Shown here: positions 6,335 to 51,258 of the stretch, piece by piece | How positions within the stretch are numbered: position 1 is the stretch's first letter | Layout: the number at the start of each line of letters is the position of its first letter | Origin: Psammoneis japonica | Taxonomy: Eukaryota | Direction of reading: 5' to 3' | NCBI GenBank assembly: GCA_008632985.1 | Contig: QPGO01000201.1 | Location: 62,001-126,000 of the forward strand | Length of the DNA stretch: 64,000 bases | The notes under the pieces: generated by a model | What the model was told of the DNA's origin: nothing | Seen by the model: the letters and a program-made list of their open reading frames with translations, nothing else | Database searches by the model: none | Translations under genes and position numbers: made by a program

Positions 6335-7340
6335 ACATTTCCTAATCAACAAATATATTTTTATTTCCAGCACCAAAATTTCAATTTCACGTAGAACTAG
6401 CATGTAGATGTTGTAGGGGATTGGCAGCAGTCTCGAAATTGCCTTGCGCTTTCGAGCACTGGTTCGCTCGATGGACCGGCTGCGCTCTCATGGCACGGCC
6501 GGTTAAGTGTTTTGCCTCACGGGGAGGGACCCGGAGAGGCGTCTTGCAGTCAGGTGGATGTCAACTAAGTCTCATGTGCCCATCAGGGCCTGGAATTTCA
6601 ACTCGTTTTTCGGAATTTTGAAAAAATGGGACCTCGTTGGTCGGCGAAAGGAGGGGCAAACGGAGCGAGATTTTTCAAATCGGATGGATGGGTCTGACTT
6701 TTATGGACCAAGTGCAACACATGAAGGTGGGCGAGGAAACGATGGTTTCAGGATTCTGTCTGCGTTGCCATGCATGGAACACCGATCATGAAGTTGAGAC
6801 CAAAATTCGGAAAAAGAGCTCGTGACACACTGCACGATTGCACAAAAGCAAAAATGTCTCCAAAACGGTTCTGCAGATTTTTTATGATTCGTTCATGTTG
6901 TGCAGCTGAGTGAAAGAGATGTTTTGGAAACGAGAAAAGTGGGGGGATTCTGACTCGTTTTCGAGACAGAAGGCATTGAAGTTGTTAAAAAAATGGCACA
7001 AATGATGTCACTGTCACAAACAGCATGGTTCAATGGGGACGCCCAAGAAATGTAAAAGCAACATTGATGGATGAACAAATTACAGAAACATTTGCATTGT
7101 GTGTTGAGCAGCTGTGCTGTGAAACAATGGATCAATGAGGACAGGAGAGTGGGATCGTGCAAAGGAAAAAGAACGATGTTCAACAATTTGGAAATGTTGC
7201 AGTTGTGAAATTATAAAGAATTGACGTGCATTGGAAATTGGACAATCTTTGGTGTTTTGAAATCATGCAAATTGTGAAATGCAAAAGGTGTGACATGAAA
7301 TTGAACAGCTTTGCAATCTTTGTGCTCGTTTGGGAGAATT

Positions 7341-7781
7341 TTAAGCTCGTTCACCATGGATGCGTCGAGCCAGTTGAATGTCTTTAGGCACAAGAGTGGC
7401 TCGTTTTGCATGGATTGCACAAAGGTTTGTGTCCTCAAACAATCCAACAAGACATGCTTCGGAAGCTTCTTGAAGGGCGAGAACCGCGGCAGACTGGTGT
7501 CTTGGTTCTGCACTGTGGAAGAATTCAAATTGTCGCTCTCTGACAATGTTTTGTGCAAGTTCTCTGACAAGATGATGGAATGGAATCTTGCGGATCAACA
7601 AATCAGTTGATTTTTGATGTCGTCTGATTTCTCGTAAAGCAACAGCCCCAGGACGACAACGATGTCATTTTTTGACTTGGTTTCCAGAGGGCATGGCATT
7701 CCCAGCTGCTTCAGTTGTTGGCAATTTGGGTGGTCTTTTGTGCGGAACAGATCTGCGAGGAGGTTCTTTGACACGGGCCAT
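7341..7781 (-). pseudogene. Histone H3-like variant pseudogene (147 codons, internal TGA at 7665-7667)
   Basis: MARVKEPPRRS...[32 protein letters not shown]...[45 protein letters not shown]. Clear H3 histone fold with a divergent tail and an extended loop 1. Confidence 0.92.
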
Positions 7782-8219
7782 GGTGATTGAGAAACATGTC
7801 GAAAAAGAAACAGTTCGTGCAAATGAGAAGCGATGTCAATGTTTTTGGTGATGGAAGAAAAAATGCACCAGAGTCGATTCGTAGAAACATGGCAAAGCAC
7901 AAAAGTGCCACGCACCAGCCAATCAAAAACCGTGACCCATGGAATGAGACATTTGTTTGTTTGTGAAAAAGAGCTGTGTGTTTTGTCTCATCTGTGCAAA
8001 AGTCATTCACGATGTCATGAAAAAGAAAATGTGTCATTTTGTGTTGTGACTGATGAAATGCATCATTGGACAACCTCGTTTTGAAACGGCAAACGTTTCA
8101 ATTGCGAATTGAAAACATGCGTCAAGTGAAGGGTGTCACAGTTGAGTGATCGTGTTGCGACAGAGAGCAAGAACAAGAAGAAAACGATGGAATGTGCTGG
8201 AATTGCCAACGGAACGAAA

Positions 8220-11200
8220 AATGGACAATGTCAGAAATTGTCGACAAAGAAAGCGAAAGGCATTTGCAGGAAAGGTGCAGGAAATGAACCTTGGCAGAAA
8301 GCGACGCCATGAAGAAGAAACAAGAAATGGCTCTGGTTTTGCAAATGACAACGAAGTGTTGCAAGAACAAGAATCAAGCGAAAGTCCAAACGTGAGTGAT
8401 GCAAGTGTGAATCTGAACAATCTTCAACAACACACAGACGAAGAGGCAATTGATGAGACAATGTCGCACTCGGAGCATTCTGTTGCAATGGAAGAAGCCA
8501 CGGAGTTTGGGGTGTGTCGCAACTGTCACAGGACTCAAAATGGGGTGTGAAATGAAGGACCCATGCATGTGAGGGACACAGGATTACGTGTGGTGCCTTC
8601 AACCATTGTAAAAACTCGTTGGAAGTTCAGCAATTTGAAACCACGAGACATTCGAAATGAAAGGAACATTGTTGTTTGTCGTGAGTGTCGAGTGGCCATT
8701 TGCATTGCAGAAGATCTAAGCAACCATTTGTTGAGTCAGCATTGTTGGCCAGCACATGTTTGGAGGACTTTGGCTGATGAAGAAAACAGATGCAGATGCA
8801 GGTGCAAACTTTGGCGTTTGTCACCACGAGAATGGAGAGCCTGGTGGACAGATGAAATTTCGCAATTCAGAGAGTTTCAAAGAGTCACTTTGAGAAGGCC
8901 CAAACCTCATTTTGCGGAAGTGTCATTGGAACGGAACAATTTGATGAATGCAACAAACAAAATGCAGTGGTTGCCGTTGATGCGAGCTGTGGACAAAAGC
9001 AGCATGCCAACAGTCAAATGTCCTTGGGGATGTTCGGAATTCCTCAATGAAGTGCAAGACGCTCCATTTGACATCACATTTGGATGGTTTCTCAATGTCG
9101 TCTGGAAAAGAATGCTCGTTTTATGAGTGATCAAAAGCAGCCTGGGTTTCTCATTGGCATTCGCAGGAATTTTTTGGACTCGGATCATGACACTTTGTTG
9201 AATGAGTGCTGGCATTGTCTTCCGTCTGTTGCGTGCAAAGATGGCGAAGGACCAGTGGTGTTGACTTGCCGGTCCCACGACCAAGGAACGACAGACATGT
9301 GTGTTCACGTGCCAACAAATCCGACAGGACCATTTGTGTGCTCTTCATCAGATCAATTTGCCCCTGCGGTTTTGCGTCCAAAGAGCACGCGCATGGTTCA
9401 GTCTCATCAATGCAGCAACTCATTTCAATTGAACCGAATGACAGGCCATTGCAAAGGAGTTGATTCTGTCACAACATGCAATGAAGGCACTTGCAACATT
9501 GACAATGTCATTTCAAGGAATCGTGGCGCACTGTGCATCGCAGGACGAGATGACATGAAGAATCACGTGCGGTCACTTGGACAAGAAAAAAGGATTCCTG
9601 CATGGTCAGCTAAAGAAAAAGTGCGACAAGGAAATGCAAAATGTGACAAGGAAATGCTCAAGAAATTGTGGAAAAAACATGGAAAGGGTGCAACGTTTGT
9701 CCCACCAGAAGATGCGATCGAAGCAGAAACTCTGTTGAAGAACGATCGACCAATGCTTTTGTCTTTTCGAACTGAGGAAGGACAATTGAGAACTGTTCAA
9801 TGCAAGTGTCCGTGGACAAGAGTGTTGCTCCATGGTCATCCTGTCGACAAATGTGGAGCTGCTTTTCCCATCATTCGAGAACCACTTGCACATTCAGCAG
9901 ACACACGTGCACTGTGGATGACTCTTGCATTGCTTTCTTTGGTGAAAGAGAGTTGGAAAGCAGCAGCAGCATCGGCAAATGCCACAGAAACATGGCAAGG
10001 TTGGCTGTTGGTTGAAGCTGTGAAAAAGTGTTTTCCGCCAAAGAAGGTTGCAGGAACAAACCGCACTCCGTTCAAGAAAGGGATGAAAACAGAAAAGATT
10101 GTGGAAAACTTTTTCTGGACTTTGGGAAATGGATTGCATTGTGATCCGTCATTTGCATCTGAGTCATTTGCAAATGTTGAAGGCATTGTTGCTGTTCCTG
10201 CGTCATCAGACATTCTGGAGCATTTGCTGAGATTGAGCAGACAAACGCCATTGCGAAATGTCATTTTGCACACAGACTTGACTGACGGTAATGACTCCAT
10301 TTTCAATTTGACGGACAAGGTGCAGCTGGACAGTGGAGCTCTGGAGCTTCGGTTTGTGGCTGAGACGTTTCCTGCATTGAAAAATTGGAAAGGAAATCTG
10401 TGCAGTCGTCATGGAAAAGTGAGTCATCCCAAATGGTGGATGCAGGGCAAGGGAGATTTTGGTTGCACAAGACTGGAAGGATCCTTGCCGAACAATGTCC
10501 GAAATGGACATGACGTCGCAGTTTGTGCAGTTGAAGAAATTGGCAAGGACATGGAAAAGGCAAAAGAGGATCATTTGATTGACTGCGGAGGACAGGTCCT
10601 TGCCAAATGCGCTTTTCACAGGTGTCCGTCAGTGGTGGCTGTGGCAGACAATGGGGTTGTGTGTTCCCATTGTGACAAAGAAGCAAAGCATGTGTGTCTG
10701 ATTTGCGGTTGCAGAAATGGAATTTGCAACGACGAAATGAAAAGAACAATGGAACAGGGAAGAACTGCATGGGTTTCAGTCCAGCAAAATGGAAGAACTG
10801 TTGCAAATGCACCAGAAGAAGAAAATGAAAATGACAGCGGTTTTGACATGGAGCCGGAACCCAATGACGAAGACACCAATTTGGTCAACGACGATTGCCT
10901 TGCGATTGGCAATGAGTCGTCGTCGAGTGGTGCAACAACAAAACAATTTGACAAGTGCATTTGAAGAAGACAATGTGAATGTTGAGGATGCAACCCTTTT
11001 GCACGATGCAGCAGACGAGCAATTGGAAGAATCGATGTCAGTTGCAACAGACGCTTCTGAAGAAGGAATGCCTCCATTTCGAACAGGGAATGACAACAGC
11101 TGCGCTGTTGAAGAAGACACGGATTCAGACTCAATGGACGAAGATGCTTTTTATTTCCCGACAACAGATGCAGCTTGTGATCCTTTAAATTGCAGAGCTT

Positions 11201-14200
11201 CGAACATTTCTGCAGTGGGGCCACATGCAACATTTGACAAACATGGACAAGTGCTGGTGCGAGAATTGTCTCGGATGGAAGGGTCTCGGAATCAGAAACA
11301 TTTGTTGCAGTCCATTGTTGCAAAAGAAGGGCCAGGGAAAATTGTTCCCCTTGTTTGTCCCAAAGCCATGATCTTTCCGTCCTTTTTTTGGCACAGCACT
11401 CCAGACGGCTCTGTGCCTGGAGCCATGCCATGCAATTTGTCAACTGATGACAGGACTTTGCGTCATTGTGGATTTGCTGCCAACAGTGAAATGACCAGGA
11501 CAAGGTCATGCGACAACTCATTGCTGACTTCCACAGATCATCGATGCCATTTCTGTGCTTTTGACGGCAACTTAAATTTGGGTTTGAGAGGACAGGACAC
11601 AAGACTTGTCATTTCTAGAGGATTCAGAGAAATGCAAGGCAGTGGCGGTGCAAGAATTGCAACGGAAGAAGAAAAACGATTGCCATTGTTTGACATGGAT
11701 TCGAATGATTCTCGTGCCACAGTGAACAAGTTGGCGGTGGCGTTGGGTGAAAAAATGGGATCTGTCTTTTTGACCATCACTTGCAATGTGAATGAGCAAT
11801 TTGGAGTTCGTCAAATCAAACGTTGGCTGGACGATGATGCAGCCATGGACAAAGTGATCGAACGTGTGGTTGGGCACAACAGCGGGATTGGGCATTTGGA
11901 ACAGGAGCAGATTAAAAAGGACATTGTTTCAAGCACATGCAATCTGGCTTTGCGTTGTTGGACAAACGCAGTTAATTTGCACCTTGCCTGCATTGTGACA
12001 AGTCCAGAACGTCCGGCGGGAAAAGTGGATTTGAGTTGGTTTGCTCATGAGTTGCAACAAGACAAAGCAAACATGTCTCATTTGCATGGAATGTTGTGGT
12101 TGGCCGAAGATGATGGAGCCATTGAAGGAACACGACGAGTCATTGAACGCACTCAAGGATCCATTTCTTCAACAGTGCACTGTGAAGAGATTCGGCAGTG
12201 CAAGAATGAAGGCATTGTGTCACTGTGTGCTGAACTTGCAAACATCCTAGAGGCGTTGTCTGGGATTTTGCTGCACAAGCACAGTCGTCATTGTTTGGTG
12301 CCAATGAAGAAAACTGTTTTAGAAGGATGCATTCCTGGAGCGACTGCATGTGCAAACAACATTGTCAGCGGACGGAGTCGTTGCAAATCAACAGACAATC
12401 GAATGGTGAGCATAAATCCGTCACGACACACCTTTGCTGAAGTGACAGCAAAACACACAAAAGACGCTTTGACGATTCTGGAAGAAATTGGATTGGTTGA
12501 AATGACAGACTGTGAGAGATTCGCTGAACAAGGGCAAGGGCCTCGAGTTCATTTTGTGGAACAAGGTTTGATGGCAAGACGTCACATTCCTCCCACAGCT
12601 GCAGAAGATGGAACAGTGTCTCCTGTGATGGGCGCGCTGGCTGTGCGAAATCCGAGTTCTGCCAACGCACAACTCTTGGACAGCTTTGGAGTTTCGAGAC
12701 ATGTTGCAGGACATGTGACAGAGGCAGACCAGCGATGCCAAGTGAATTTGCGTCCTGCAAAAGCAACCGAAAAGGAATCTGCAACTGTCTCGTTTGTGGA
12801 AACAGGGAGCACCAAAATTGGCTCGGTTGCTGCAGAAGAAAGAAAACACAGCAAGAGCAAACGCAATCGAGCCGACAGAGATTGTAGACTTTTGATGCAA
12901 CCTGAAGTTTCAACACACAGTTTGGGAATTGCAAGCGTTCAGACCAACATGAAATGGGTTCACATTCCGTCTGTTCCATTGGAAGAGAGACCTGCACTCG
13001 ATCGTTCAAAGCCAATGACAGCTTTTAAAGATTTTGGACTGGCCACGAATGATGTTTCAGGCACATCCGACTCAGACACTGACAAGGTGTTGGCGAATCA
13101 AATGGCTCGAGAAACCGCATTTGTGAATTGTCCCGAATGGCGATTGTTTGCTGAATCTGCAATTGCCATCGTCAAGGATCAAATGTTTTCTCCATTGTCT
13201 GCTGACGGGATCAGCATCTTTGGGTTGCGACCTCCGGAACTGCATTTCGCACAGCACGTTGGAGCGCATTTGCGCTGTTTTGTTCGCGAGACAAAAGCCC
13301 TGGCTAAACCCACAGACATTGACTTGTTAGAAGAGAAATGCAAGGAGGCTTTGTCTCTTGAATGTTCTCTTTGTTCCTGGATTGACGGAACGCATCATGA
13401 GGCAAAGATGCGACTGTGTGCATTGCCATTGATTCTTGACTGTGCAAGAGCAGCTCCCGTTGAAGATTTTGGAAATGACGAAGCAGAAAAGGAATCAGTT
13501 GTTGCTTTTTTCAGTGCTGTTGTGAGCTGCATCTTGTTGACAAGTCTGATGCTGGCATTTGCAACTTTGACGATCTGTCAGACTGGATTTGCTGTCGATC
13601 GTTGTTCTTTGCCGAATTGAACGAATCGCATTGCCATTTCCGTGGTGCAGCAACACAAAGCCAAGTCACGCGCCTCGTTTCTTGTTGCATGCATTGTTGT
13701 CCATGGGATCACACTTGAATGAAGCAGAGCTGATGTCAACAGGATCTTTGCGAAATGCCTTCATCAAGGCACGTTTGTTGGATCTGAGCAATCCCGAAGA
13801 GAGTGCGCGAAAGACAATGAGGCGACATGCAATGGAACAGCTGAGGAAAACGCCAGGAGGGTGTGCTCAATTTGACCGATGTGTTTCTTTGGCATGCAAA
13901 GCTTTGTGTCAAGGGTTGGTTTTGAATCAGATGGCGCAAGACAGTCTTCCTGCATGCTTGCACACACACTTGCGACAGGAAACGAATGACAAAACAGAGA
14001 AACACATGGCAACAATTCAGAAACCTTTGCCATGGCCTTGGTTGAGGAAGGCCGCAAGATCAAGATTGGGAACTTGCCAAACGCCGATGCTCTTGCCAAT
14101 GCTTGATCAACGCCATTGTCACATCCAATGAACTGGATGATGTCAGAAAGAATGACGATCAAAGCGATGCTTCTCATGCTGAACAAAGAAAGGCATTGCG

Positions 14201-16041
14201 TCTCATGAAAGAGGCTGTTGATGATCACATGAATCCATTGTTGGATCATTGTCCAAAATCAACATGCGCCGTTGGTGACCCAGGTTCCGGGAAAACAACT
14301 GTGATGATGATCGGAGCTTTGCATGCCATGTCAAGAGGTTTGTCAGGACTGGCAACCGCATTGCTGCACAAGCGGTCCATCCAGTTGGGAGGCGACAATT
14401 TGCATCATTTCTTGGTGCTTCCTCCCAGGGAAGGAGACACTCCCAACAGAACAGCCAAACTGGCTCTTGCAAAACTGCGTCGTGATCCGTCCAGGATGGA
14501 ATTTGCTCATTGACTGGATTGCATGTGTCTTGATGAACAGGGACAATGGGCTTCTTTTTGCATTTCCGCATTTGACATTGTCCTTTGCCATGTTCGGAAC
14601 TGCAACCGGTTTCTTGGCGGGACACTGTTGATGTTGACAATGGACACATTGCAATTGACACCCATGCACGGATTGCCAATGCTCATGTCACCGCATGTGA
14701 TGACTTCTTTTAACTTTGCAAGGTTGCGAGAGTCTGTGCGAGCACTTGACGATCCGATTTTTGACGGATTCAACAAATGACTCGTCTTCTCCCAAGCAAA
14801 TCAAACAATGACATCAAGAAAGAGTTTTTCGATCTTGGCAAAAAAACATTCACGTTCGCAGACAGTTTTGATGATCGGCAATTCCATCAAATGCAACACA
14901 TGTTTTTGGAAAAAACGAACCAGGAAAAGTGGTGTTGCGGAATGAGGTTCAGAAACTACGACGAGAGAATGAACCAATGACAATTGCAATGGCTGTGGAC
15001 TGCGAAACAACCCTGAACAGAACATGGGCTAAAGCTTCGAAATCAACAACAATGAGATTGGACAACAAAGTCAAACAACCTCATTCGATGCACTTTTTTG
15101 AACAAGCTGCATGTGAAGTTGCCTGCTTCAAGGCAAAGGCTTTCAGCAATTGCCAAAGTGCCGCTCTTTTTGACATTCCCAGTCAGGAAGCTCTTGACGA
15201 ACAACGTCCTGTTGAGGTGCTTGTTGCTCCGCATGATCAACCTGACAGTGATCCAGGGATGGATTCTAGAGAAGACTTGTTGGCTGCAGGGTGGACGGTG
15301 CAGATGATGGGATTGGCGCCGGAACATCAGATTAGACTCGGACAAGGTTGTTTCGGAAAACGAAGACAGTGTGGTTTGAAACCTGGAATTGCAGGATCTT
15401 GCCATGCGGTGATGGGACAGACCTTGTTGGATCTTGTGTCAAAAGCAAATGAAGGAAAAGACAGTCTTTGCAGCACTTGGGAACGCAGACAAGTTGCAGC
15501 CCAATGGACCTGCTTTGCAGGGGATCCGGACAAAACAATGGAAGCATTGTGGAGCACTTTAACAAAAACCGATCAATGCATGCTGTGCACTTGTCGCTTG
15601 CCAGAGGCCATGTTGGCGGTTCAAGACAACGCGCCAATGCAAACAAACTCCGATGATCAACCTGCTCCGACACCGTTCGAGATGCCGAAGTGCCACCCTT
15701 GTCGACCAAAAGACATCGCGCTTCCCCAAGCAGAAAGTCCTTGTGCCTGTCTCCTTGTGTCTGTTCAAAGCCCTGAAATGACCTGCGTTGGACAAACCAA
15801 GGATCTTGGCAAAAGGATCATGCAACACAACAGTGGGTGCGGATCTTCCTCTGCTTGCTCTCACCTGCTTCGGCCATGGGGCATGTTGGCGCACGCAGTG
15901 GGATTTCACGATGACCCGCGAAGCAGACGTTTGTTCGAAAGACAATGGAAGTTGCTCCGAGCTCAAGAAAAACAGAGACTGCGAAGACCCTTGGAACCTC
16001 AAGAAACAGCTGATTTGGCACATCGCATCATCGCCTCTTGA
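8220..16041 (+). pseudogene. Disrupted ~2500-aa Rep/helicase/nuclease polyprotein of the Helitron-like element
   Basis: Successive + strand ORF pieces. Rep motif 1 VFLTITCN (11764), motif 2 HELQQDKANMSHLHGMLW (~12046), motif 3 RHVAGHV from YxxxY (~12700). Walker A GDPGSGKTT (14274), LDEQG, FLGGTLLMLTMDTLQLTP, CHAVMGQTL. GIY-YIG-like ACLLVS..TCVGQTKDLGKRIMQHNSG..RPW (~15745-15880). Confidence 0.8.
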
Positions 16042-19000
16042 AAACAAAACAATCCCAAAGAAACACTGTTGCATGTCCAGGCCGGACGCATTCAACGTCG
16101 TTGCAACAAAGCCACAACAATGAACTGAAACCCAATTTTGTCACTTGACTCATTGAATTGCATGTCATTGCAACGTGTGCAATGTGCAACAAAAACATTT
16201 GTGTTTCGTGCACTGGAGCAGGGCCATCAGGCATCTTCACAATGAATCTTGTGGACCAATTTACTTGATCATTGTCATGGTCTTCCACTTTGGCACAACG
16301 GAAGCTGGCGCAATGCCCTTCGTCAGCAAAATCCAGCATTTCATCAAATGCATCGGCGGTGCCTTGCACACATTCCACGAACTTGATGACGCAGGCACGA
16401 CGAGTCCGTTCCACTGAGGTCTTCGAATGAGGACCAACCAAACGGTCCACAATCCAACCGCTCACAATCACGTAAAAAACCCCATTCTGACAAGTCCACT
16501 TTCCATGAGACTTCACTTCAACAATCTCGGTCAAAGAATGTTGCTGACCACGAGTCGAGAATGTTTCCATGCTTGTCTCGAAGCAATCCGAAGCGCACCT
16601 CACTGCACTCATCATGGTGGACTGAGCATTCCAAGTGGGCCACATGTCCTGCTTGTCCATGCCATGTGGGACAATCGACTCGGGATTTTTCATTCAGCAA
16701 CAATCTGTCTGTGAACATCAGTTGGAGATTTCCGTTTCGAGTGCCGGCCATGTGCTCTTTTGGACACGGCTTTCACACCTGTCTAAGTCGTGACATTGTC
16801 GGTTGCACATCATGCCCTGCAGCTTTGCATCAAAGGCAAACATTTCCCAGCATTTTGCAGTCTTGCACGCATTCATTGCACGCACCTTTACATTTTCCAT
16901 GACATTTTCATCATCATGTGTGGAAAACATCGGCGCAGCAGCGGTCATGTGCCTCATCAGACTGCGTGGCCACAACTGAACAGCGTTCTCATGCAACTCC
17001 TTTCCAGCAAAGTGAGATCATCTCCACAATTCCACCCACACAGGCAGCAGAGTTTGGATTTCTTCAAATGGCATCATTCCAGAATCTGCCCTGTTTCCAT
17101 CACCTGCGTCGATCACAAGTTGATGCAAATCCGCTGCATCCCGTCTGTCACACTCATCCGCTGTTAGACTGGTTTTGCCACTCATCAACCAGAGCATGAG
17201 TTCATCTCTGGCACACATGAAACTTGTCGCTGCAGGTTGGAGATTGTCCGGGTGATCATTTGGATCACTTGGAATGTCGGTCAATGCTGACGAAGGTGCT
17301 CTGTCAAGCTGAGGAAACACGGCCAACAATCACAAGGCCGTTCATCTTCAACAGGAACAAACCATGCGTGGCTTGGATGATCTTCATGGTTCATTGTTGC
17401 CGACATTTCTTGCTGGTTTTCAGTCACTGTCTTCGTGTTGCCATCAAAGTCACTTTCAAACAGATTCCATGTGCCTGCAGTGCATTTCTTGCGCACAAAG
17501 AGGCACGTGCGTCACTGTCATGTTCTTGTTGGTGCAGCAACACAGTCTGTCTCGCATCTCGTCGACCAATCAGAAAACGTGGCCTGTGATTTCAGACATT
17601 TCCGTCCCCATTTTAATCCAGTTGTTCATGGATGATGCACGTGTCCAATTGTGAGCCAATCACATGTTCAAACAAATGAAAGAGCAGTCAACAAATTCCC
17701 TGTTGACAGAAAACACAATCATTTGTGCATTTAATGCAGTCTTGTCAATCTGCAAAATGCATGATTGCAATTCTCACAACCTGTTGTTCAAGCAGCGTTC
17801 CGTGCTGTGCTTGCAAGTTTGAGCAAGTTTGAGCAGTCCCTGTCCTCACAGCATCCAATTCTGTTTCCGTTCCATCATAAAAAACTTTGTTGCTTGGCAT
17901 CAAAAACGAAATGTGCAAAGTCAACAATTGACTCTCAACCTTCTCCGACACATTGGACGCATCAGCCATTTCACCACGTTTGTGCCAGCCTGTTGCAGTC
18001 CAACCGTCCTTGTCATTTGCATGATTTGCCATGCTTTTGCACGCAGCACGCATGTCATGAAATTTGGCATTGATTTTGTCCTGTGGCATTTCTGCAAAGA
18101 GGTTGATGTTTTTAAAAAAAGCTGTGCAGTGCGCAATGACCTTGCTCTCAAAACGTCGCTCTTTTTGGCATTGCTGAAAGCAATCGGAACCTCAACAGTC
18201 AAATCATGCTGTGCAACAACTGGGTTGACGTCTCCTGTGTGAACGCAGCCGCATGACACATTCTTCTCCAACACTTGCGTCCTGTCACAAAAATGTCTGG
18301 AACAAGAAACGTTTCCAAACACAAGCTCAAAGCGAGACATCGAAATTTTTTGATTGTGCACAACAAAGAAATGCTGATCACCTCCTCTTTTGGGATTTGT
18401 CAACTGCACAGTCGGACTGTGTCTGATGGGTTCAGTTCCGCAGTGCACAATTTCAACGGAACCAAAGGCTTCTGGTGCTGATGACAGGAATGGCATTTTC
18501 GTGCAATCGTTTGAAGGACTTTTCCGGCTCTGCCACAAGGAAAGTTGCCCCAATCCCAATGATTTCTTTGCAATGTTCCAACAACAGATGAGTTTCCGTT
18601 GACGTTTGTGTCATGATGCAAAAAACGTGAGGCGCATCTGTCAAATCCCCAAACATGAACAAGCAATTGCAGCTTGCATTCACACCAATGCGACGCCATT
18701 TGTTTCCATGTTGTTTCCCGCACCACCTGCAACATTGCGCACACTGTTGTGCCATGCTTTGCGTGATGCATTTGAAGAGGTCCCATGCTTTGTGGACAAC
18801 AACACGCATTTGACAACCTTCCCTTCTAAAAAATCGTTTGTGACACCGGAACTGTCTTTGCATTTCGAAGCTGAAATGATTTTTGTCGCGTTTTCTTTAA
18901 ACCAATGGTTTGGTGTTCCATCCTGCATTGTCGACAAATTCACGACATTGGAGCTGGGATTGCGATTTACATTTTCGGCAACGTTGTTTCCACTTGCCAT
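16028..19000 (-). pseudogene. Broken cargo ORF(s) of unknown function within the Helitron-like element
   Basis: Consecutive protein-like minus-strand fragments (e.g. HFCDRTQVLEKNVSCGC, GWTATGWHKRG) interrupted by frameshifts and stops. No family recognised. Confidence 0.4.
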
Positions 19001-20879
19001 GGTTTTGGTTGTTTTCTTGTGCTTTTTGAGAACACTTTCCTTCCACAGACTTGTCACAAAATCAGACAGGATTCTCACATTGCAGCGAACATGTCAGAAA
19101 TGAGAACAGCGTCAGTTGACACAGCTCAGCTTTGCATGTGACAATGTGACACCTTGTGTCATCGACATTGTGTTGATGTTTGAACAATTGTTTTGGTGCG
19201 ACCGTTAAAATCTCGTTGGTGGCATTGCATTTGTGAGAAGCCTCTGATCATGTTTTTGTGACAAAGAACACATCATTTTGTGCAACTTCCCATTCCCTGC
19301 TCGTCCTGTCTTTGTTTCTCTCTCTCTCTTTCAATCTCTCTTTTTTGGCTTCTCTCGCCCTCACTTTTTGCCTGTGTCCTTTGTGTTTTCACTTTCTCAT
19401 CCAACGTGACAACACAAACATGGCCACTCCTCCAAAACGATCTGCAACAGTTGTGACAAATGACCCACCCAATCCCGTGACTCCGACTGAAACTCGACGC
19501 ACAGGTCCCAAATCAGCGCGCAAGACCAACGTCACTCCCTTTGCTTGTTCAGGACACAAACAACTGCACATTGAACAAGTTCAAGGAAACATCGAACTTG
19601 CAACATGTGAACTTGACCCTGCCAGAGATGGATTCCATCCACCGATTTGACAAGGCATTGACAATGGAGATGCAAACTTAAAGAAATGGGGCATCGTTGC
19701 GTTGGCCACTCGATGAACATCACCAATGGATTCTTCGATTCTGCACAATGCACCTTCACTTTCTGCTTCCACATCATGGTCTTCTCTTCAAAACAGAACC
19801 AGCGAAAACTGCCCACGACAACACATTGTAAGATCTGTTGAAGAATCCAACAAAGCAAGCCAAAAACAAGTTCTTTCACATTTGCAAACTCATCTTGACA
19901 ATCACACCACCACCACCAGCAACAACAAAAACAACAGATCTTCCACAGCAAATCGCTGCATGGCACCACCCATTGTGGTCAAACTCCTCACAATGCAGAA
20001 CTTGCAAAATTGGACGAACGAGTGGCACCAGGTCACGTCATCACCATGATCTGCCACTTGTGTGCTCACGCAAACACGAATTGGGCAAAAGAAAATCCCA
20101 AAGAAGCAACTCCATTCTTCACCAAACCGTGTCCTGAAGCCGCGCGCCAAACACTGGGGACAAAAATTGATCTTGTCATGCAACAAACAGTGAATCCGTC
20201 CCGGCGAGAGAAGCGAGCCGGGACCTTTTCCCAGCGGTGGTGTCCAGTTTCACACTCTCCTTGCACAAGCATCCGCACTCATCCCATCAATTCACAAACT
20301 TGGCAATGCATTCATTCATTCCATTAAAATGACTGCATTTGAGCTTCCTGATTGGCATTTGGTTGACGTTGACTCCTTCATGATTGGTTTAAAATCATGT
20401 CCCGTCATTGCAAAACAACACCCGCACTGTTTCAAACACATGGCACAAGCTCATTGCCCCCACCACGGATTAAAGCTGCCACGCATTTTAGTCAGATGTC
20501 AAAACAACCACTCCATTCAGTCAAAGCAACCCAGGCACAGAATCAACTTGGCTTCTTCATTGGACTCAACACAGTGAAAGACGGAGCTGTGTCTAAAGTG
20601 GTTTGCTGCCGATGCCTGTTGCACTCATCTGTGTTGAACTGCATGTGGTGCTGGCGATGGTTGACAGCAACACCATGACCAATGAACCAATGCATTGTGC
20701 ACAAATGCACCACATTGCGCTTCGGCATCGGGAATGGCACACCCATGCGGAAAATGAACATTTCCATCTGCATCTGTCCAAAGAAATTCCACCTTGAAAG
20801 AAGGGTCATGTTTTTGGTTCTGGGACAAACAGCCCGCATCACCTTGCCAAAAAGAACCCATTTCCCTTCTGCACAAAGC

Positions 20880-23746
20880 ATGTGACGACACTTGTGCTTC
20901 TGCGGAGTGCAAAACACATGAGTGAACATCTGCAAATGGTTTTTGATGAAGGTGAGAAACTCTGCCTTCCGGAGAGACCGACCTTTGGCGCATGCAAACT
21001 GCTCCATGGACGTGGTGTCAACATGCTCCTTTCTGCAATTCTTGGCTTCTTGCACGAGATTGTCGAACTGTCTTTCCATTGAAAGCACGCTGCCGTCATC
21101 GTCGCAACAAGAATCACCGCCGCATGCATGAAACCAAGAATGTGGACCAAACCCAGGGCTTTCCGAAACAAACGCCTCGAGAGCACATGGACATGGAACC
21201 AACCCAGTCAACGCACTCATCCGCATGAAATCCATGGTTGACAAGTGACCAAATCCGTGCATCGTCTTGCTCTTGCTCACATTTGTGCACACCGTCTTGG
21301 CACCAGGCCGAATCAACTTTGTGTTTGCCCAAAGATGCTCCAACTGAGTCTTTGCATGTTCACCCATTTGCAACACTTTCACTTTGTCATCAATGGATTG
21401 CACCAGCGGAGCCACGCCGGCTCTGCATCGAGCACCCACAAGACACTTCGGTCTCACATCCTTGCCCTTCCTTGGGACTGGCCTGTCCAAAGGCATTTCC
21501 TCTCCGAACGTGATGCAACACAACTCCGCACCACACAACATGTGCAGGTTCCTCTCTGTCGCAATTGCCTCCAAAAAAGTCATCCCACCACTTTGAAGCC
21601 CGTTGTTCATGAACTTCCACAATGTGCGAACTGGTGTCCACTGTCCGTGACAATCACGGCACACAAACAACTCCAAATGAACGACATCTTTGCTTGTGAC
21701 AATGACACTCAATGGACACACTCCCAACCAATGCAAAAACCCAAATGGCATGTCTGGCATGCACCCACACCAAAACATTCTTGTGGTTCGCTCCAGCAAT
21801 TCCGAACCACACATTTTTGTGCCACCGATCCCTGGATCAGCAAAAGGCTTTCGTGTCTTGTGCCAGTCATGGAATCTTTGCTCCATTTCTGCATTCGGAC
21901 AATTCTTCACTGGGTCCACATCTTGCCAATCCGGATCATCAAAAGCATCCAACACTTGCTTCAACAACAAACTGGCGCTCTTCTCTTTTGCCAATGACTT
22001 GAGACGTGCAGTGAGACACTGCAAACCACAGATGTGATGCCAATGTTGACGAACCTTCCCTTCAAGCCCTTGCTTTCAAAAAGCTGCCTCTTTTCCTTGG
22101 CCATTGATGCATGTCCAACAACGTGTTCAACCCTGTCAACATGCTCTCCGATTCTTCAGATGAGTTTCCATTGTTGAGATGAAGATTCGTGCACCACGAA
22201 GCGCGAACCTGCACTGCCGAATGGACCATGTTTCTTGCATGCCTTGGATTTGGCGCAGCCCTGAATTTCTCCAAAAGCATGTCTCTTTCTTCTGAGATGG
22301 GAAAGCAGTTCGCATCATTGCCAAGGTGCACAACATCCACCACAAAATCCCGGATCGAGACAGCCATTTCTCCGACAAGCTGCAAAAACTCGGTCTTGTG
22401 CTTTTTCACAGATGCCCCCAAACCCGCAAGCATCAACCCTCGAAGCTCACACATCACCTGAGCTTGTTGACGACTCAATCCAAAATTTTCTCGAAGCAAG
22501 TTCCTTTCTTTGCAATGCGCAAAATTGGCCATCACTGCTTCGGTGTGCATCCAAAACAATTCAAACACTTTCTTGCGTGTCTCTTCCAACCTCGGATGGT
22601 CATTCATTGCAATCAGTGCCATCGGATCTGCATCATTCGCCATGTGGTTCGAATCATTTTTCATTGCCGTGACCTTCACATTGAACGATTCTCTCATTGT
22701 CTCCGCCATTTCCATCGGACACGCTCCGTGACACCAACGTCCAATCTTGGTGATGACGCCATTTGGCATTTGGCTCGTTGAATGAAGACCACCATGGCCA
22801 TGTGCTTTTCCCTGACTTCCTTTCTCTCCAGGCAACACTTGTCATGATGCACAAAGTGGGTTGACGTGCGAATCTCAGGAACAAAGACAACCAATGCCCA
22901 CTCACATGCTTCTTCCAAGCCACCGATTCTTTCCTTGGCAAGTGCCTCTTCTACATTTGCAATCTTTTCCCACCAAATCTTGTTGGCAACCGTTGCATTG
23001 ACCCGTTTCTTTTTCTTTTCTTTCTCTTTGCGACGGCTTTCTCTTTTGATCCTTTTTTGTTCGAGAACTTTCTTCCTTTCGATTTCCTTTTCCTCATTCT
23101 CCGCAATCCACGTTTCATCGTCATCTCCTTCATTGTCGTCCACAAAATCAAACGTGCCGACTTCTGTCCTTGCTTCTGTCTTGCGTTGCACCTTTGCACC
23201 ACAGCACATGCAACATGTCTTTGCTCCGTCCACACCGTGCGGCTGCTTCACAAAACACTTCCCACACTTCCAGGTTTTTCCTTCGCCTTTTTCAGCACTG
23301 CTCCCTGTCACATTCTTCACGTCAATTCCTTTTTTGAACGCACTTTCCATTCTCTTAATTTGCATTTTGGTCCTTAACTTCTTCCTCTTCGAGGCAATGT
23401 CTTGCCAATGTTCACGCATCTTGAACTTTGCTCTGGCATGTTTCGACATTTGTCTCGGATCAAATGCAGGCAAAGCCGACTGCACTCCAAACACAACAGG
23501 TTTGTTCCATCCTTCTGCAAACATTTGAACTCCCTCATGCAATGATGCCCCATCATTCTGAACAGGACACGGCAAAATGGGCATCACTGGAATCGGAGCT
23601 GATGGCAATGCCTTCCTTTCTTCCCGCTCGCTGTCTCTCTTTTGCCTCTTTTTCGTTCTCCCAATCTCTTCCTCATTTTTCCTTCTCTCCCTTCCTCTCT
23701 TCTTGTCCTTCTCTCCCTCGTTTCGTCCATCCCTGTTGTTCTCCAT
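20880..23746 (-). pseudogene. Broken large cargo ORF (charged N terminus, CxxC-CxxC finger, possible base-modification domains)
   Basis: Tiled minus-strand ORFs 22694-23746, 22062-22838 and 20543-22024, with WKCGKC...CCMCCG, TNLHL(N)NGN and MHGFGHLS. Confidence 0.45.
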
Positions 23747-25166
23747 CGCGTCATCGTCAGGAACACTGCCACAAATTTGTTTTGAGGAACACTCCAGTGC
23801 TTTGCTTTTTCACATGTTCAAAACACACCAAAACTTCCCTCCATTATTTTCACGATTACTTGCACGTGCACATTGTTCATTGTGACACCCCACACTTAAA
23901 TGCTTTTGTCATGACACTCTACCACTATGAAAAAAAACATATCTGCTATATTCTTAATGTCTTTTCTACACGGGTCCTATTTGAAAGTCCCCTTTCCCAA
24001 CATTTTTCTCCCCTTGCTAATTTTTTTTCGGCCAACTGCACCGCTTTACGTACACCGCCCTTCCTTTTTTCCCCCCTTTCGTCACTTTCACTGACACATC
24101 GACATCACCTTATAACCGTCTCCTGCACCACCACCAATCAAAAATCATCACCTGTGATTCCGGACATTTCTTTCTTCTCCGTCATCTCCCCCCCGTCCAT
24201 CCGCCAACCCCGTCTTGCCTCTTGCCCTCCATACGATACGGCCGAATAAGTCTGCGCGCAACTTGGCACTCCGGCGATAGGACTAGACGCATCCCCCTGT
24301 GCCCTCTATTAGCTACTAGAGAGGATTATGACGGCTACATCTAATGTCATTCATGCCGGAGAAAAAGGATGATCACTCTAAACTTGTTGGCATGAAAACA
24401 TTGCAACGACGAATCCACAGCTTCAAATTGCCTGGAAACAAGTCGCTGAATCGGATGTTGCGTGCTCATTGCTCTACAACTGCTGTTGAACACCTGAGGA
24501 CAGCATCATAGCTCCATCACGGGTTCGTCTCATCCGCACTTTCGATGAAGCTGCAACTACAACGCGAGACAAGATGCAGTTGGGAAGTATACTGGGCGAA
24601 ATGAGAATTCTTTCTCTGATTGAAGCACCATTTGTCGAACACAGGAGAGTAAGCTGTAACAACGTATCCCATCGTCCCGCCATCTTTTCATTTCGTATGA
24701 CTCTACATTCCTCTGTAGTCTACCCGACATGGTCACGGCGAGAACAAATCATCCACACGCAAACATGACTTAAACAAGCGTGAAAACCTGGCATTGCCAT
24801 CCCTCTGTATCCCGCGAAAAGAAGAGTCCTTATAAGGACCCTATCTTCAAGACATCGAACGATGCAAGTGCCAATTCCAAGACCAGACGGATTGACCGGC
24901 GTAACCCAGCATACTGTACCTGGTAGCGGTTTCGGCAGTGTAGTATTGTTTGGACTAGTAGACACATTGCTACACCTGCAATGGCACGGAGAGCAAATAG
25001 GTTGTACATGAGCAAGAAGTCCATACTTCTTGACGCCATTTTCTGATGACTCGTCTTCAAGCAGCATTTCATATACACGCAAGTACGTCGTAGAACCAAA
25101 GCTTCCGCTACTGCGGGGCACCTTGTGCCTCTATTTGTTCTTTCGTGTGTTTCTCTGTCAGCCGAC

Positions 25167-30325: not shown

Positions 30326-30754
30326 GTTCTATCTAGCGGGTTTACTATCTTGCGTGCCAACTTCTTGGGTAAACATCAGTGCTCTCTCATCCGTTGTTGC
30401 GAGCTCGAGCGTTGCGTTTTGCGTTTATTTTGGCGGGCGGGAGTATTTTTCCCCCTCGCCGCGTAAAGGTTTACCGTAGTAATTTATCTACCATCTATAC
30501 TAGAGTGACAGATCATGAACACGGTCGCCTTCGCGTTCGATAAAATTAGCCGAACCCTGACGTCATGAGGAAAAAGGAATCACGATTCCCGAAATCTTGT
30601 CATTCCAAAATGACTTCCCAATCGACGTAAGAACAAGTCGATCGAATCCAAAATTGAAAACAAGATTCCTTCATGGAACACGAGAACAAAAATCGTTTGG
30701 CGGGAGAATTGAACAGTCTCCAGAGTCTTTCTTCATCAAAAGACGTAACCCTGC

Positions 30755-32329
30755 AATGCCAAACATCACCAATCCTCTCACCGGCAAAAGGAGGCAAATG
30801 CCCAGACGATGGACCACGCAGAACCGTCGTAAATCACGGGGAATGTCCGTCGATGATGGGATGCTTTGCAGGGAAGCGCAACAAAGCACCGCCTTGGCGT
30901 TGATGGGGGCGAGCGTTTTCTTGTGGATGCTCATGTTGGGCACATTGGAATGAGGCAATGTCATTTCCCAAGTGGAAGATGCACCCGAGCTGCATTTGGT
31001 TGATGCGATGACGCAAGCGTCGTTGCAAGGATTTGGAAACTGTGTTTCGCACTCTGCTCTTTGGCTTCGAGTCGATTCCGAAGTTGGTGACATTCCTGAT
31101 GCAGCAATGGCCAAAAAGCCGCACCAAAATGCCTCGCGGTTTGCCCGAATCGATGATTTCCAAGATGATGATGAGGCGGATGAGTTTGCATCATTTTCCA
31201 AGGACAAGCTGCGAAGAATGTTGACACTGTTTGAGTTGCCCGAGTGGGTCCGAGTGCCTCGTCCCAACGACCAACGAGATCTTGCATTTCACCAAGAGAA
31301 CTTGTTGGTGCGCACGCTCATAAAGCACAGACGAGGGAAAACACACAAAGAAATGGCAAGTGATGGAATCTCAGGGGAGGCAACGAAGTGGTCGCACGGA
31401 TGCAAATGGTTTGTTCGTCATCTTGATTTCAGGTGTGCAAATGTCACAGGACCAGCCGGCCTTCAACGTTGGGTGCGACACTTCCCAGAACTTGCCGAGG
31501 CGATTCAAGTTGACCTCGGAAGAGACGCAACTCTGATGAATCCTGAGACAAGAGAACGCACTCATTGTGATGGAGTTCATTTCGAACCTGGAACATTCTC
31601 AGCATGTGGATCGACCAATTGCAAAGACTGCGCAGCATCTGCTCCTCGCACCGGTCCAGATGGAAACTGTGAAGGCAGCATGCGTCATCCTCAAAGCGAT
31701 GAAGCACAGCAAGCTGCACACACTGGGAAATCAAAAAAGCATGCTTTGAAAATGTTCACCTTCAATCTTCCAAATGGAATGCACGCATGTGTGTGGGGAC
31801 CAATGTCATCACGGCCGCAAGTGCCACAAAAATCCTTTTGCAATTCGTTCAACATTCCTCATGACTCAACTGGTTTGATTGCATCTGCACAGGCACGACA
31901 GCCAAGCCCTGCACAGAAGCGACATTGACGACTGGCTTCTGCAAATCCAGCAAGCTTGCCCTGAACTTCAAGGAAAAGTGTGTTCATTTTGTGGAGACCA
32001 AGCTTTCAAAGGTGTGTGGAACTGCATTTCGGACCAAGCATGAGACTGCACAATTGGTTCCAGTTCTCACAAACAGATGGAGAATTGAGAGCGCAGTTGT
32101 GAAACGGTGCCATGAAGCTGTTGAATGGGGATGTGCAGGTGAAGTGAATCTCTGCGAGTTGATGAATCAGAAGAATCAATTCAAGCTCGAGTTGGACGCG
32201 ACGATTGTGCACGAGCAGCTGTGTGTGGGTTTTCTGTTTCACAACATCCACATGTGCTTGAACGGGTCCAACACTGGCAACTCTCTTGGGCTGCGTTCTC
32301 CAGAGTTGGAGGACTGCCTGCAACTGTAG
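30755..32329 (+). pseudogene. Harbinger-type DDE transposase pseudogene with intron 31817-31892 (donor now GC)
   Basis: HTGKSKKHALK..LPNGM..WGPMSSR, then after splicing PHDSQAL..FCGDQAF, then EAVEWG and HNIHMCLNG..PELEDCL. These match the DDE_Tnp_4 pattern with Y>H/C changes. Start approximate. Confidence 0.8.
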
Positions 32330-32489
32330 ATGTTGACAAAGACAGAGTGGCCATTTTTGATTGAAAAATGTCAACGGCCCGTGCCACCCTCCCTGTCAGT
32401 CGTCGTTTCTCCAGATGCATCTGTTTCCAGCTAAATGCTGCTCCTGCAGCAAAGGAAAGCCACCTGACATGCAGCGTTGCAGAACAGAA

Positions 32490-33718
32490 CTTTGCTCCAA
32501 TTATAGACCATGCCATCTGTCGTAAATGGTGTTGCACCTGCTCCCTCCCAAAAAGCTTGCATTCCTCCTCTTTGATCTTTGCATTGTGCCACTGGCAGTC
32601 ATTCTTGTCTCCGCGTTCTTTCGCATCCATGCGACCCCTGCGAAGGCTCTCAAGCCTGCGTTTGTCAGCAAGATTCTGAGTTTGCTGTTGGAGAACCGAG
32701 AGAGTGCTGCCGCAGCTTGAGTTGAGGTCAGCCAAAGCACTTTTGGCCGCAGTCAAGAAGTTGTGGTTGCCGCTGTACCTCATGACTTTTCCATTGCCTT
32801 CTAGAAGGGAGGCAGAAGGAGTGCCATCGACTTCCACCGGAGAGTCAGCTGTGCCAGAACCAGTGGCATTGGTCGCCGAAGCAGAACAAGCGGTTTTGGT
32901 TGGATGGGATGATTTTGCTCCATTCGTTGTAGCACTGCGCTTGGAGGTGGCATCTAGAGCTCCTGCAGTCCCTGTAGAATTCATTTGCGAGGGAGGGAAA
33001 GTGAGGCTCATCAAGTTAAGAGCAGAGGGAGGATTTAGACCGAAGCGGGCCTCGCAGCAGTTGTTGTTCTCCTGAGTCTGCAACCCAGCTGCCATTGAAG
33101 CATCGCTCTTTTCCTGTGCAGCAGCTTGAGTGCGAAGATGCTGTTGCCACAACTTGTGACCTCGGGCCATGGCACCCGTTTCTTCAGGATCATGTGGATC
33201 AGGGTCCTCAAGGTGTTGCTCTGAAAGGCGCGGTGGGAGGCCGACCCTCTTCTTTTCGGGAGCGTTCTGTGCAAATTTCCTTTTGGCAGCCGACACACGA
33301 TCGCTGCTTCACGCAATGCTGATGCCATGCATGAGACACACACCGTTTTCTCCATTGAGCTTTCCGTCCAGCTCACACCATGGATTCGTTTTGTCAGAAG
33401 CGCTGGATGTGTCGGTGCTGCAAGCATTGCTGTCTTCGCACGCAGCAAGCATGTCAGAAAGAAGCTGAAGAAAGAAAAGAAAGTGAGCCACAAGTGATGC
33501 ATCTCATGCCATGTTTCGTAAGAGAGAAATGAAAGGCTTGCCTCGCAGTTGTGGTCTTCCCCAACGAGCCTGTCCAACATCGGCATCCTCTTCGCAGGAT
33601 GCTGTTGCTGCTGATGCTGCGCACCAGCAGCAACTGGAAGTGTCCCGGTGGCATTTTGATGAGGAGCAGCTGCCGCCGCTCCTCCGACCGCCACCGCCGC
33701 TGTTGAACGAGCATTCAT
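32490..33718 (-). pseudogene. Harbinger accessory ORF (ORF2) remnant, probable intron 33465-33541
   Basis: Convergent with the transposase inside the TIRs. Low-complexity protein fragments and a gcaagc...ttcag intron-like segment. Confidence 0.5.
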
Positions 33719-34135
33719 GCCGCCTGGGAAGCTCAAGGCAGGTGGGCCAACACGGTGTTGGGAAGAAGTGGAGCGTTGTTGTTTGCACTCATCGTTGAGT
33801 TTGATGTTTTTTTTTTGTTGTGGCGCGCCCGAATTTTTTTTAGAGATCTGCGAAGATGGAATCTTTTGACTGCAGATCGAAGCCGAAGCACCATGGTGCA
33901 TTGTTTGCGCACACTTCTGCACCGCGTTCACTGAGGAAAAAGCGGAGTGAAGCCAAAACAGCACCCGGATGTGGATTGCCCGCCTGTGTTCGCAGACGTC
34001 ATCGCGGAAAGCGCGCACGCCAGCATGACGTGGCGAACGCGAAGGCGGTCGTCTTTACTTTTGATCTGTCACTCTACTTACTTTACACGACTCACTCAAC
34101 GTGCGCGTTAGTTAATCACGCGCGACCATTTTTAT

Positions 34136-44800: not shown

Positions 44801-45200
44801 CACAAGCACAGTTGTCACCTTGTGCTTTGAATTGGCAGAATGGCAGCACTGTCTTGTGGAACGTAATGCGCTGCTGGTGTGTTGGTGTGTTTGTTTTCTG
44901 CAAGAAGAACCAAAGAGAAACACCCCGTTGGCAAGACACATGTGTCAATGTGCAGCAAAGACTTTGTCACTTTCAAATGCACCAAACAACAACACATCAT
45001 GCTCACCTTGGGTCATCCAGTCATTGCAAACAGCCGTCTTGTCCGTCCACCACAAAAGGCACAACAGCAACATCGTGTTTTTCTCTCTTTGCTTCTGAAC
45101 TTCTGGCGGCGGCCCTCCATCCATCAGCTTTTCTACGTGATTTTTTATGTTTGATCTGGTGCCAAAGATTTGTCTTTGGCAAGGAAAGTTGTGGCAGGAT
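38880..45200. mobile_element. Heavily degenerate repeat-like block(s) depleted in both TpA and CpG; family not identified
   Basis: Same TG/CA-rich signature as the neighbouring transposons. Protein-like remnant on + at ~42360-43768 (coiled-coil C terminus). No diagnostic catalytic motif recognised. Confidence 0.45.
44197..44320 (+). repeat. Three tandem ~41-42 bp units
   Basis: gccctgtctgctct... at 44197, 44239 and 44280. The last two units are nearly identical. Confidence 0.8.
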
Positions 45201-46445
45201 TTAACGTGAGCATCGCAAACCACCTCAGTGCGAAAGTCGTGGCAACTGTCCTTGAGCAATCCGGAAAGCAAGATTCCTCATTCCGTTGAAAGTTCCGGAA
45301 GAGGCTCAGGTTGCTGACTGCCCACCATCGGCAGTCATTCTCATTCTTTCAAGAACAACAACAGCAACAGTCGTCAGACAGTTTTTAATGCTGTCGTTTG
45401 ATGCAGGACACCTCTGCCGCTGTTGTCCTTCATCATTCATTCACAACAGCAACACTGGATCAGCCATGTTGAACCAGGAAGCACCGCCGGGACCGAACGC
45501 CGGTGGCGCACCTCAAAATGCTGCGTCACAACCACCGCCTGTACATCCGGCACCACCTCCTGTGCAGCCTCAACCACAGCCACCACCTCCACCCATTGGG
45601 CCCCCACAGGGGCAGCCGCTGGGAGAACCACCTCCTGCGGTTCCAGGGCAAGCAGGTGGCCCAGGCGGGGTGCCACAACAGCCGCCGCAACCTGCACCTG
45701 GTGCTAACATGCCTGATCAACCCAGGGCATTGACCACGCATGCTGACTTGTGCGCTGCTGCAAGCCTCGACCCGCATGGCGGAAATCACACAGAGGCCAT
45801 GTTAGACTTTGCAGCTGACGCGCAGGCACCGTCGCAGCACAACCCGCAAGTGCCATTCGGCAGACTTGCCGCCGCATCCGAACATGACGTGCCTGTGGCA
45901 ATCATTGTGCACTGCCACACACCGGGGCAGGGGAACCACCCCGGGTGCATCCAGGTTTCCCACCGCGTGTCAACTTGCCCCATGACGGCAGTTGGCACCG
46001 CACAACTGCGGGACGGGCGCACCTTTGGCATGGTTGGCGATTTGGTGCATGACCAGTGCCATTTAGCCAAGTTTCCCATGGCCATCACCAACTTGGCACC
46101 CCAAGGCACCCATGCATTGATGGATGCCCAGGCCCTGACTGCGATCGCAGCAGCGCCCGAAGGTCCATTGCCTCATGTGGGAGCCCAGGATGCCCACACA
46201 GTGGAGGTTAGAACCTGGGACATCATGCATGTCCCCTTTGGCTGTGTTGACCTCCTCCTGGTGATGCTGCTGACCCCCAAGCAGGCCTTCGTGTGCATTC
46301 ATGGTGCAGCCACTGCGGCTGATCAGGTCAATGCTTGCAGGCCATTGCTGGACTTTTTGAAGGTGGCGGCCACGGCAACTCAGCAAGATCCTGTGGCATC
46401 AGCCACAGTCTGAGATTGGCCGTCTGTGCCCCAGCCACCCAACGA

Positions 46446-46872: not shown

Positions 46873-46940
46873 TGGGGCACAGCAATGTCACTCCCGCATG
46901 TTGTGCGAGGTGACGAAATCCACAGAAACGAAACTGCGAA

Positions 46941-51230: not shown

Positions 51231-51258
51231 TCACTTAACGGCCCTGATCATGGGGGAG

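Follow-up and report, generated by a model that had tools for sequence, protein, structure and literature searches.

A hypermutated Helitron-type element of Psammoneis japonica carries a remodelled histone H3 variant with a possible role in evading silencing

Here we describe a full-length histone H3 variant gene carried by a TpA-hypermutated, now dead Helitron-type element of Psammoneis japonica, found in a stretch of 64,000 nucleotides of the genome assembly (hereafter the window). We put at about one half the probability that this H3.3-derived variant was, as its substitution pattern suggests, kept for a long time by a Helitron lineage as a working anti-silencing accessory gene, and that it died with its element under host TpA and CpG mutators. 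Chromatin writers and readers and TET enzymes are known as transposon cargo, and histone genes have been seen in transposons in the form of captured copies or fragments; if our reading is true, a selected transposon histone without the silencing lysines would make the nucleosome itself one more tool of counter-silencing, much as has been proposed for certain giant viruses.

The H3 gene and the element around it

The features discussed below, in window coordinates, are:

6470..24265, unstranded: one Helitron-type element, TpA-hypermutated and dead, 17.8 kb; both ends match those of a multi-copy 2.7-kb non-autonomous family
6467..7012, unstranded: left terminal segment, whose extreme end folds into a hairpin (-9.2 kcal/mol); 84-93% identity to the start of 10/10 fetched copies
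7341..7781, minus strand: histone H3 variant, putatively H3.3-derived; a 146-codon pseudogene that lacks tyrosines and has a TGA at residue 38
7503..7550, minus strand: loop 1 of the variant; 16 residues versus 6 in H3 (+10)
7665..7778, minus strand: N-terminal tail, collinear with H3; K4, K14, K18, K36 and K37 kept; stop at 7665-7667
8140..16041, plus strand: Rep-helicase, frameshifted, with a C-terminal GIY-YIG domain; start approximate
16028..17500, minus strand: decayed coding region, right end approximate; 65% DNA identity to G000:C14:426816-428053, its one relative in the genome
20543..23809, minus strand: broken cargo gene with a zinc finger, a putative TET/JBP-like dioxygenase fold and a C-terminal amino-acid:DNA transferase-like domain; 26-27% identity to the intact protein P0136
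24248..24265, unstranded: right terminal 18-mer; 22 genome matches at <=1 mismatch, with flanks diverging directly after

The H3-like gene is real and is now dead. It runs intronless on the minus strand from an ATG at 7781 to a TAA at 7343-7341, matches the Pfam Histone family (E=2.3e-31), and has H3 throughout the best 60 of its 176 PDB matches, with CENP-A accounting for 0 of them. The gene is broken, since an in-frame TGA at 7665-7667, absent from the first-pass annotation, interrupts it at H3 residue 38; this stop fits a CpG change, because the codon at that residue is CGT or CAT in a second H3-bearing family described below. The tyrosines have all gone via TpA hypermutation, and each of the three core tyrosines fits the mutator. 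The first-pass annotation, which placed an intronless H3-like gene divergent from a plus-strand Rep-helicase inside a mutated block, agrees with the coordinates, the Pfam and PDB matches and a TpA observed/expected ratio of 0.063 within the block versus 0.62 and 0.66 in its flanks; the tail and loop sequences that it gave are likewise correct. Among the best 120 of 2,586 protein matches listed there is no intact close relative of the window H3, and the top two (P0002 and P0003) were rejected as relatives, being canonical H3s with internal duplications. The core sequence of the host H3.1 is that of named diatom H3s.

That the block is one 17.8-kb element with the H3 gene inside it follows from the termini shared at both of its ends. 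Copies of the 2.7-kb family finish in the same 18-mer as the window (24248-24265), and a reversed-control 18-mer has 0 genome matches, versus 22 for the true one; in three further copies the right-hand part ends at 24172-24225, and two of these have the 18-mer as well. The element has the defined ends and terminal hairpin, without target-site duplication, by which a Helitron is recognised; no such duplication was seen in its flanks. Furthermore, the Rep domain falls in Atlas clusters named Helitron_like_N at 0.95-0.96, and 28 of its top 30 matches lie in that family set; the scan of the mutated ORF gave no Pfam domain for Rep, nor was there a PDB match. Downstream of Rep, the helicase matches PIF1 below the cut-off (E=6.2e-4), and the GIY-YIG domain lies at the end of the Rep-helicase (Pfam, E=9.8e-5). 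The decayed region at 16028..17500 gave no Pfam match in any of six frames.

Canonical Helitron1 elements are defined by 5'-TC and CTRR-3' ends and an A/T target. On the minus strand the ends of the window element resemble TC and CNAG, in an orientation opposite to that of Rep, and no constant target T follows. The ends are thus far atypical of a Helitron: most copies have CTNG on the host side of the left junction, and the element finishes in CTTG, usually with an A after it and without duplication (6470-6475 and 24248-24266; L096-L111). This junction pattern is reminiscent of the IS91-type rolling-circle elements, in which a tetranucleotide is targeted.

The 2.7-kb non-autonomous family, which has both termini in common with the window element, is found at C383:29906-32572 and in about 20 other places. 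Its C383 copy retains TpA in the first kilobase and is depleted beyond it, possibly a snapshot of an ongoing mutator. Many TpA are also kept in the last 400 bases of the window element (23850-24250), though lost in the sister copies C59, C46 and C143, so the right end of the element escaped hypermutation here. Other TpA-depleted blocks of the window lie at 30600-33900, 39000-47400, 49000-57000 and 59500-64000, and the one at 39-45 kb is strongly depleted in CpG too. The TpA loss in the window block matches the TpA to TpG/CpA process described by Mettrop et al. 2026 (bioRxiv 10.64898/2026.01.13.699255) in Bigelowiella natans, where it is likewise confined to foreign or mobile DNA; that case, in the passages of the preprint concerned, involves viral insertions in a chlorarachniophyte and has no mention of diatoms, whereas in the window the process is near-complete across a transposon.

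Tail, loop and core of the variant

The N-terminal tail, whose residue states are read from a single sequence, has exactly the length of the H3 tail and aligns to it without gaps, with 15 of 38 residues identical, a score reached by 0 of 100,000 shuffles. The first-pass annotation had seen in its divergence a possible sign of the centromeric (CenH3) type, and this gapless alignment speaks against that view. Its other observation, that equivalents of K9 and K27 are missing, is confirmed: K9 is replaced by Arg (AGA, 7752-7754) and K27 by Asn (AAT, 7698-7700), with the R8-S10 context around K9R preserved and the lysines K4, K14, K18, K36 and K37 in place. Neither K9R nor K27N is within reach of the TpA or CpG mutators. 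Elsewhere in the tail K23E, R26G, L20P and A29M fit single or double mutator events (TpA for K23E and R26G), and for these four changes the earlier suggestion that part of the tail divergence is younger than inactivation holds. The tail differs from H3 at 23 of its 38 residues, so the loss of K9 and K27 may be drift; in a post hoc test, the probability that both fall among the lost lysines is 0.048 (2/7, K23 excluded) or 0.11 (3/8).

Loop 1 is indeed extended, as the first-pass annotation proposed, but by 10 residues in our alignment instead of the approximately 9 first given. The insert contains a GT...AG stretch of 32 nt, and its interpretation as a mini-intron was rejected, since a 32-nt excision would break the frame. 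An extended loop 1 is not specific to CenH3: database matches include H3s with ordinary tails whose loops are 5-9 residues longer, and one viral H3 has a loop 1 longer still than that of the window gene.

The core is identical to host H3.1 at 74 of 97 residues and to host H3.3 at 76 of 97 (76-78%, mutator damage not discounted), and outside loop 1 it is 84% identical to host H3.3. It differs from both host H3s at 14 residues, 7 of which fit single TpA or CpG mutator events. At the eight sites where host H3.1 and H3.3 differ from one another, the window H3 is H3.3-like at three (S86, S96, A135), H3.1-like at one (53) and matches neither at four; among these four, A87 fits a TpA event on T87, and residue 31 is Ser. 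The diagnostic sites lean to H3.3. In a tree of 38 H3s the window gene is an unplaced long branch with no supported neighbour. Viral origin is likewise unsupported in that tree, which held 15 viral H3s (19 viral H3 loci were fetched, and 4 were omitted as partial or near-duplicate).

The histone fold of the variant was under purifying selection, in the pattern expected of a long-resident, selected gene. Core comparison with host H3.3 gives a pS of 0.93 and a pN of 0.11. Counting transversions only, which avoids the products of the two transition mutators (TpA, CpG), the core differs from host H3.3 at 19/40 fourfold sites versus 1/91 second positions (p=6e-11), and from the three host H3.1 genes at 13-14 of 34-35 fourfold sites versus 3/91 second positions (each p<=3e-6). 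Non-mutator divergence is 1.5-5.3% among element copies, versus 22-24% between the H3 and its host counterparts in the core and 34% in the tail, and the changes are concentrated in tail and loop. Base composition also follows the element: fourfold-site GC is 0.30 in the window H3, near the 0.35-0.40 of its Rep gene, and GC3 is 0.32, versus 0.58-0.62 in host H3 genes; in the H3 of the second family, fourfold-site GC is 0.60, near the 0.62 of its neighbouring gene. The selection signal covers host and element branches together, and it is therefore possible that an already divergent variant was captured from another organism.

Further copies, a second H3-bearing family and the companion gene

DNA searches of the assembly found no close copy of the window H3, reaching other H3 genes at 68-73% only. 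Protein searches (12 matches among 14 candidates and 14 of 14, 15 loci combined) recovered four H3.1 genes, one intron-bearing H3.3 gene and 10 relics in TpA-poor DNA, and found no parent gene of the window type in the assembly. Relatives of the window Rep on C168 and C78 (70-73%) have no upstream H3. Contigs from DNA run X1, which is possibly the source of the assembly and hence not independent, include exact pieces at depth 64-74 and diverged pieces at depth 35-50 that span 6870-7126, 7129-7309, 7196-7440, 7419-7611 and 7845-8047. The one that covers loop 1 (7419-7611) has 13 differences and a net indel of 0, and it retains the loop; in these figures, which draw on 8 of the 237 pieces and on 40 of the 166 differences, none of the differences listed falls at K9 or K27. 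With diverged pieces over the terminus, the H3 gene and the region upstream of it, a second copy therefore exists, either a paralogue or the other allele.

A second Helitron family carries an H3 relic in each of three copies (C92:1-22800, C177:126800-147687 and C203:9000-25150; hereafter the C92 family). The first two of these share 96% identity across 21 kb, while C203 is 79-92% identical to both in segments. This family has a PIF1 helicase above the cut-off (E=3.9e-10) and a RING finger, and tblastn gave no match at E<=1e-6 between its Rep-helicase and that of the window. Its H3 keeps K9, Q68 and F84, lacks S10, K14 and K27, and has a loop 1 longer by 5 residues. K27 is thus absent in both H3-bearing families. 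Placing the two H3s in one clade gives a p-AU of 0.289, by which the grouping is neither rejected nor supported.

The proposal that an H3 gene is transposon cargo is therefore upheld: the gene lies between both element termini, the reads hold a diverged second copy, and a second family has its own H3. According to the first-pass annotation, a single-copy gene unlinked to other element copies, or a consensus equal to canonical H3, would have counted against the idea; on examination, neither describes the gene. As for the C92 family itself, the N-terminus of its Rep carries a long tandem repeat, and a SET-like ORF within the family was set aside for want of Pfam support. Short or decayed derivatives at C9:449800-452900, C13:4840 and C268:59641 keep a C92-type H3 relic, and the one on C9 has in addition retained sequence of one C92-family end.

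Five loci (6 matches among 8 candidates, one locus being split) hold a gene of the type found at 20543-23809: four lie in elements with an H3 variant, and a 3.7-kb fragment makes up the fifth. The window variant is thereby shown to travel with a gene that would, by its predicted fold, be TET/JBP-like. At E<=0.001, a profile search for homologs of this companion gene returned P0136-P0149. These 14 proteins form a metagenomic family without annotation that would combine a zinc finger, a TET-like fold and an ADDT-like domain; 10 of the 14 were looked up and are unnamed or 'hypothetical'. Their catalytic parts have neither a Pfam match nor a PDB sequence match, and their finger is RanBP2-like, below the cut-off. 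The HxD iron motif is conserved in the homologs and in the C59 and C92 copies, and reads HxN in the window copy. Best VIA matches to a model of the homolog P0136 (mean pLDDT 53.8) are NgTET1, TET2 and CcTet, at Z 8.1, 8.0 and 7.8 (rmsd 4.7-5.3, 183-203 aligned), a Z of about 8 being possibly non-specific on the tool's own scale; the top Foldseek match is CMD1 (E=0.029). The C-terminal part falls in the Atlas cluster ADDT/aGPT-Pplase at 0.84-0.86 and matches a glycosylase at Z 5.4, both as leads only. Metagenome and viral scans gave nothing usable on the genomic context of the intact TET-like homologs.

Silencing evasion and its alternatives

Silencing evasion by the window H3 is plausible from its residues. 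The variant would be transcribed from a promoter shared with Rep, would pair with host H4 and, like H3.3, would be deposited independently of replication. Its nucleosomes would be open to active marks (K4, K14, K18, K36) and closed to H3K9 and H3K27 methylation, and silencing on the element would be diluted while the dioxygenase acts on modified DNA bases; more speculatively, the longer loop 1 might alter contacts with DNA or chaperones. Both halves of such a mechanism have support in the relevant parts of earlier work: H3K9me2/3 and H3K27me3 mark transposons in the model diatom Phaeodactylum (PMC4504042), and H3.10 of Arabidopsis, which has changes near K27, evades methylation at that residue (PMC8015243). 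H3.10 can be considered a functional analogue, with an H3.3-type core and changes at or near K27; it is host-encoded and has been tested (PMC8015243), whereas the window H3 is transposon-encoded, also without K9, dead and known from sequence. More tentatively, and with the odds somewhat against it, Helitrons of diatom-like algae may encode an anti-silencing module, in which an H3.3-derived variant unmethylatable at K27 (here also at K9) is paired with a fusion of a TET/JBP-like dioxygenase and an amino-acid:DNA-transferase-like domain. If so, it would occur in two distant Helitron lineages of one genome, with the transposon supplying its own nucleosome subunit and perhaps modifying its own DNA bases. 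Against anti-silencing stands the second family, whose relics (C92, C177, C203) keep K9.

The same evidence of purifying selection would be expected if the cargo was functional in another chromatin role, such as packaging or protecting extrachromosomal circles, steering insertion or acting as a decoy for readers or chaperones, with lysine loss incidental to a fast-drifting tail. Both families share V3 and a longer loop 1 (+10 and +5) and differ in their K9 state, which suggests the loop rather than K9 as their common trait. We nonetheless regard such a role as unlikely, if worth keeping in view, given that the R8-S10 context is kept, the K-to-R change is conservative and all active-mark lysines survive; co-carriage of a TET-like gene also fits anti-silencing, as proposed for fungal elements in the part of that study that concerns them (PMC12730594). 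Passive capture, in which the Helitron took an H3 copy or an already divergent host variant that never worked for the element, has precedents in the hAT-borne H3 of fungi (PMC6710886) and the H4 fragments of Culex Helentrons (PMC4067079), as these are presented in the sections concerned, and would agree with a gene that is broken today and with the C168 and C78 Rep relatives that lack it. It is a distinctly less probable account in view of saturated synonymous sites beside almost unchanged second positions, changes clustered in tail and loop, codon bias that tracks each element's neighbouring genes in both families, and the want of a window-type parent gene in the assembly.

The first-pass annotation had also raised a centromere mimic, a CenH3-like histone that would target the element to centromeres or seed centromeric chromatin, and this we consider very improbable. 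In the account given in PMC4359364, CenH3 is recognised by an elongated loop 1, by strong divergence of the tail, by the disappearance of diagnostic Gln, Phe and Thr residues and by phylogenetic grouping, and the passages on CenH3 in PMC8015243 describe a fold conserved at about 50% and tails that are longer and unalignable. Part of these diagnostics is present, in the extended loop 1 and the replacement of Q68 and F84 by His. However, the tail is collinear with that of H3 and neither long nor unalignable, 74-76 of 97 core residues are those of host H3 instead of about 50%, T107 and T118 are both kept, H3s with ordinary tails can have long loops, and the C92 family retains Q68 and F84. The tree of 38 H3s contained no CenH3 sequence, and no host CenH3 was available for comparison: a Pfam histone search (28 matches among 34 candidates) and a host H3 fold search (14 of 14), both of which ignored introns and took best candidates only, recovered none. 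The host CenH3 gene is perhaps intron-split or missing from the assembly.

The capture of H3 by transposons is already known in fungi; what would be new here is a selected, remodelled H3 variant on a Helitron. An intronless H3 within a hAT transposon is described from Pseudocercospora fijiensis, related Mycosphaerellaceae and Pyrenophora tritici-repentis (Dhillon et al. 2019, PMC6710886), and it resembles the window gene in being an intronless H3 inside a DNA transposon that was inactivated by a repeat-directed mutator. The fungal case, as set out in the corresponding sections, involves a hAT element, RIP and a transduplicated host coding sequence in hundreds of inactivated or recent near-identical copies; the window gene, by contrast, sits on a Helitron that was hit by TpA hypermutation, exists in few copies, and combines a selected core with a tail and loop that have been remodelled. 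Rolling-circle transposons with histone or chromatin-enzyme sequence are likewise known from the passages of Thomas et al. 2014 (PMC4067079) on H4 and H1/H5 fragments in Helentron-Cq-32A of Culex and a SET-domain proto-Helentron of Phytophthora. The Culex pieces are fragments with 83-84% DNA identity to the host gene and with stops and frameshifts (PMC4067079), unlike the window H3, which is full-length with saturated synonymous sites.

TET/JBP cargo, for its part, is found in Helitron1, Helitron2 and other fungal DNA transposons and has been proposed to counter silencing (Kojima 2025, PMC12730594), which makes the window element a further Helitron with a putative TET/JBP-like dioxygenase. The elements of that study are fungal only, with no mention of diatoms or stramenopiles and no histone cargo in the passages compared (PMC12730594), and the window element differs from them in having one gene that joins the dioxygenase-like domain to a zinc finger and an ADDT-like domain, alongside an H3 variant. 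Fusions of chromatin domains with transposons have been described more generally, with no mention of Helitrons in the relevant part of the source (bioRxiv 10.1101/2021.11.30.470311). Among the matches listed in our literature search, titles and abstracts contained no Helitron-encoded H3 variant under selection, the scope of the search leaving aside most subscription papers and Repbase reports. The window copy is dead, and its value is therefore as a pointer to intact relatives; whether an unmethylatable H3 releases transposons from H3K27me3 or H3K9me would be open to direct test in a tractable diatom.

The histone searches additionally returned loci apart from H3. One of them (L068, G000:C4:685180-688389) is an ORF with a signal-peptide-like start, an H2A-like fold and an H2B-like segment, with a second histone match 130 bases on; it is possible that this is a fused H2A-H2B gene. 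Two others (L073, G000:C71:131648-134779, and L074, C527:3530-6661) are near-identical ORFs with a weak histone-fold match, and both start in TpA-depleted DNA and finish in normal DNA.
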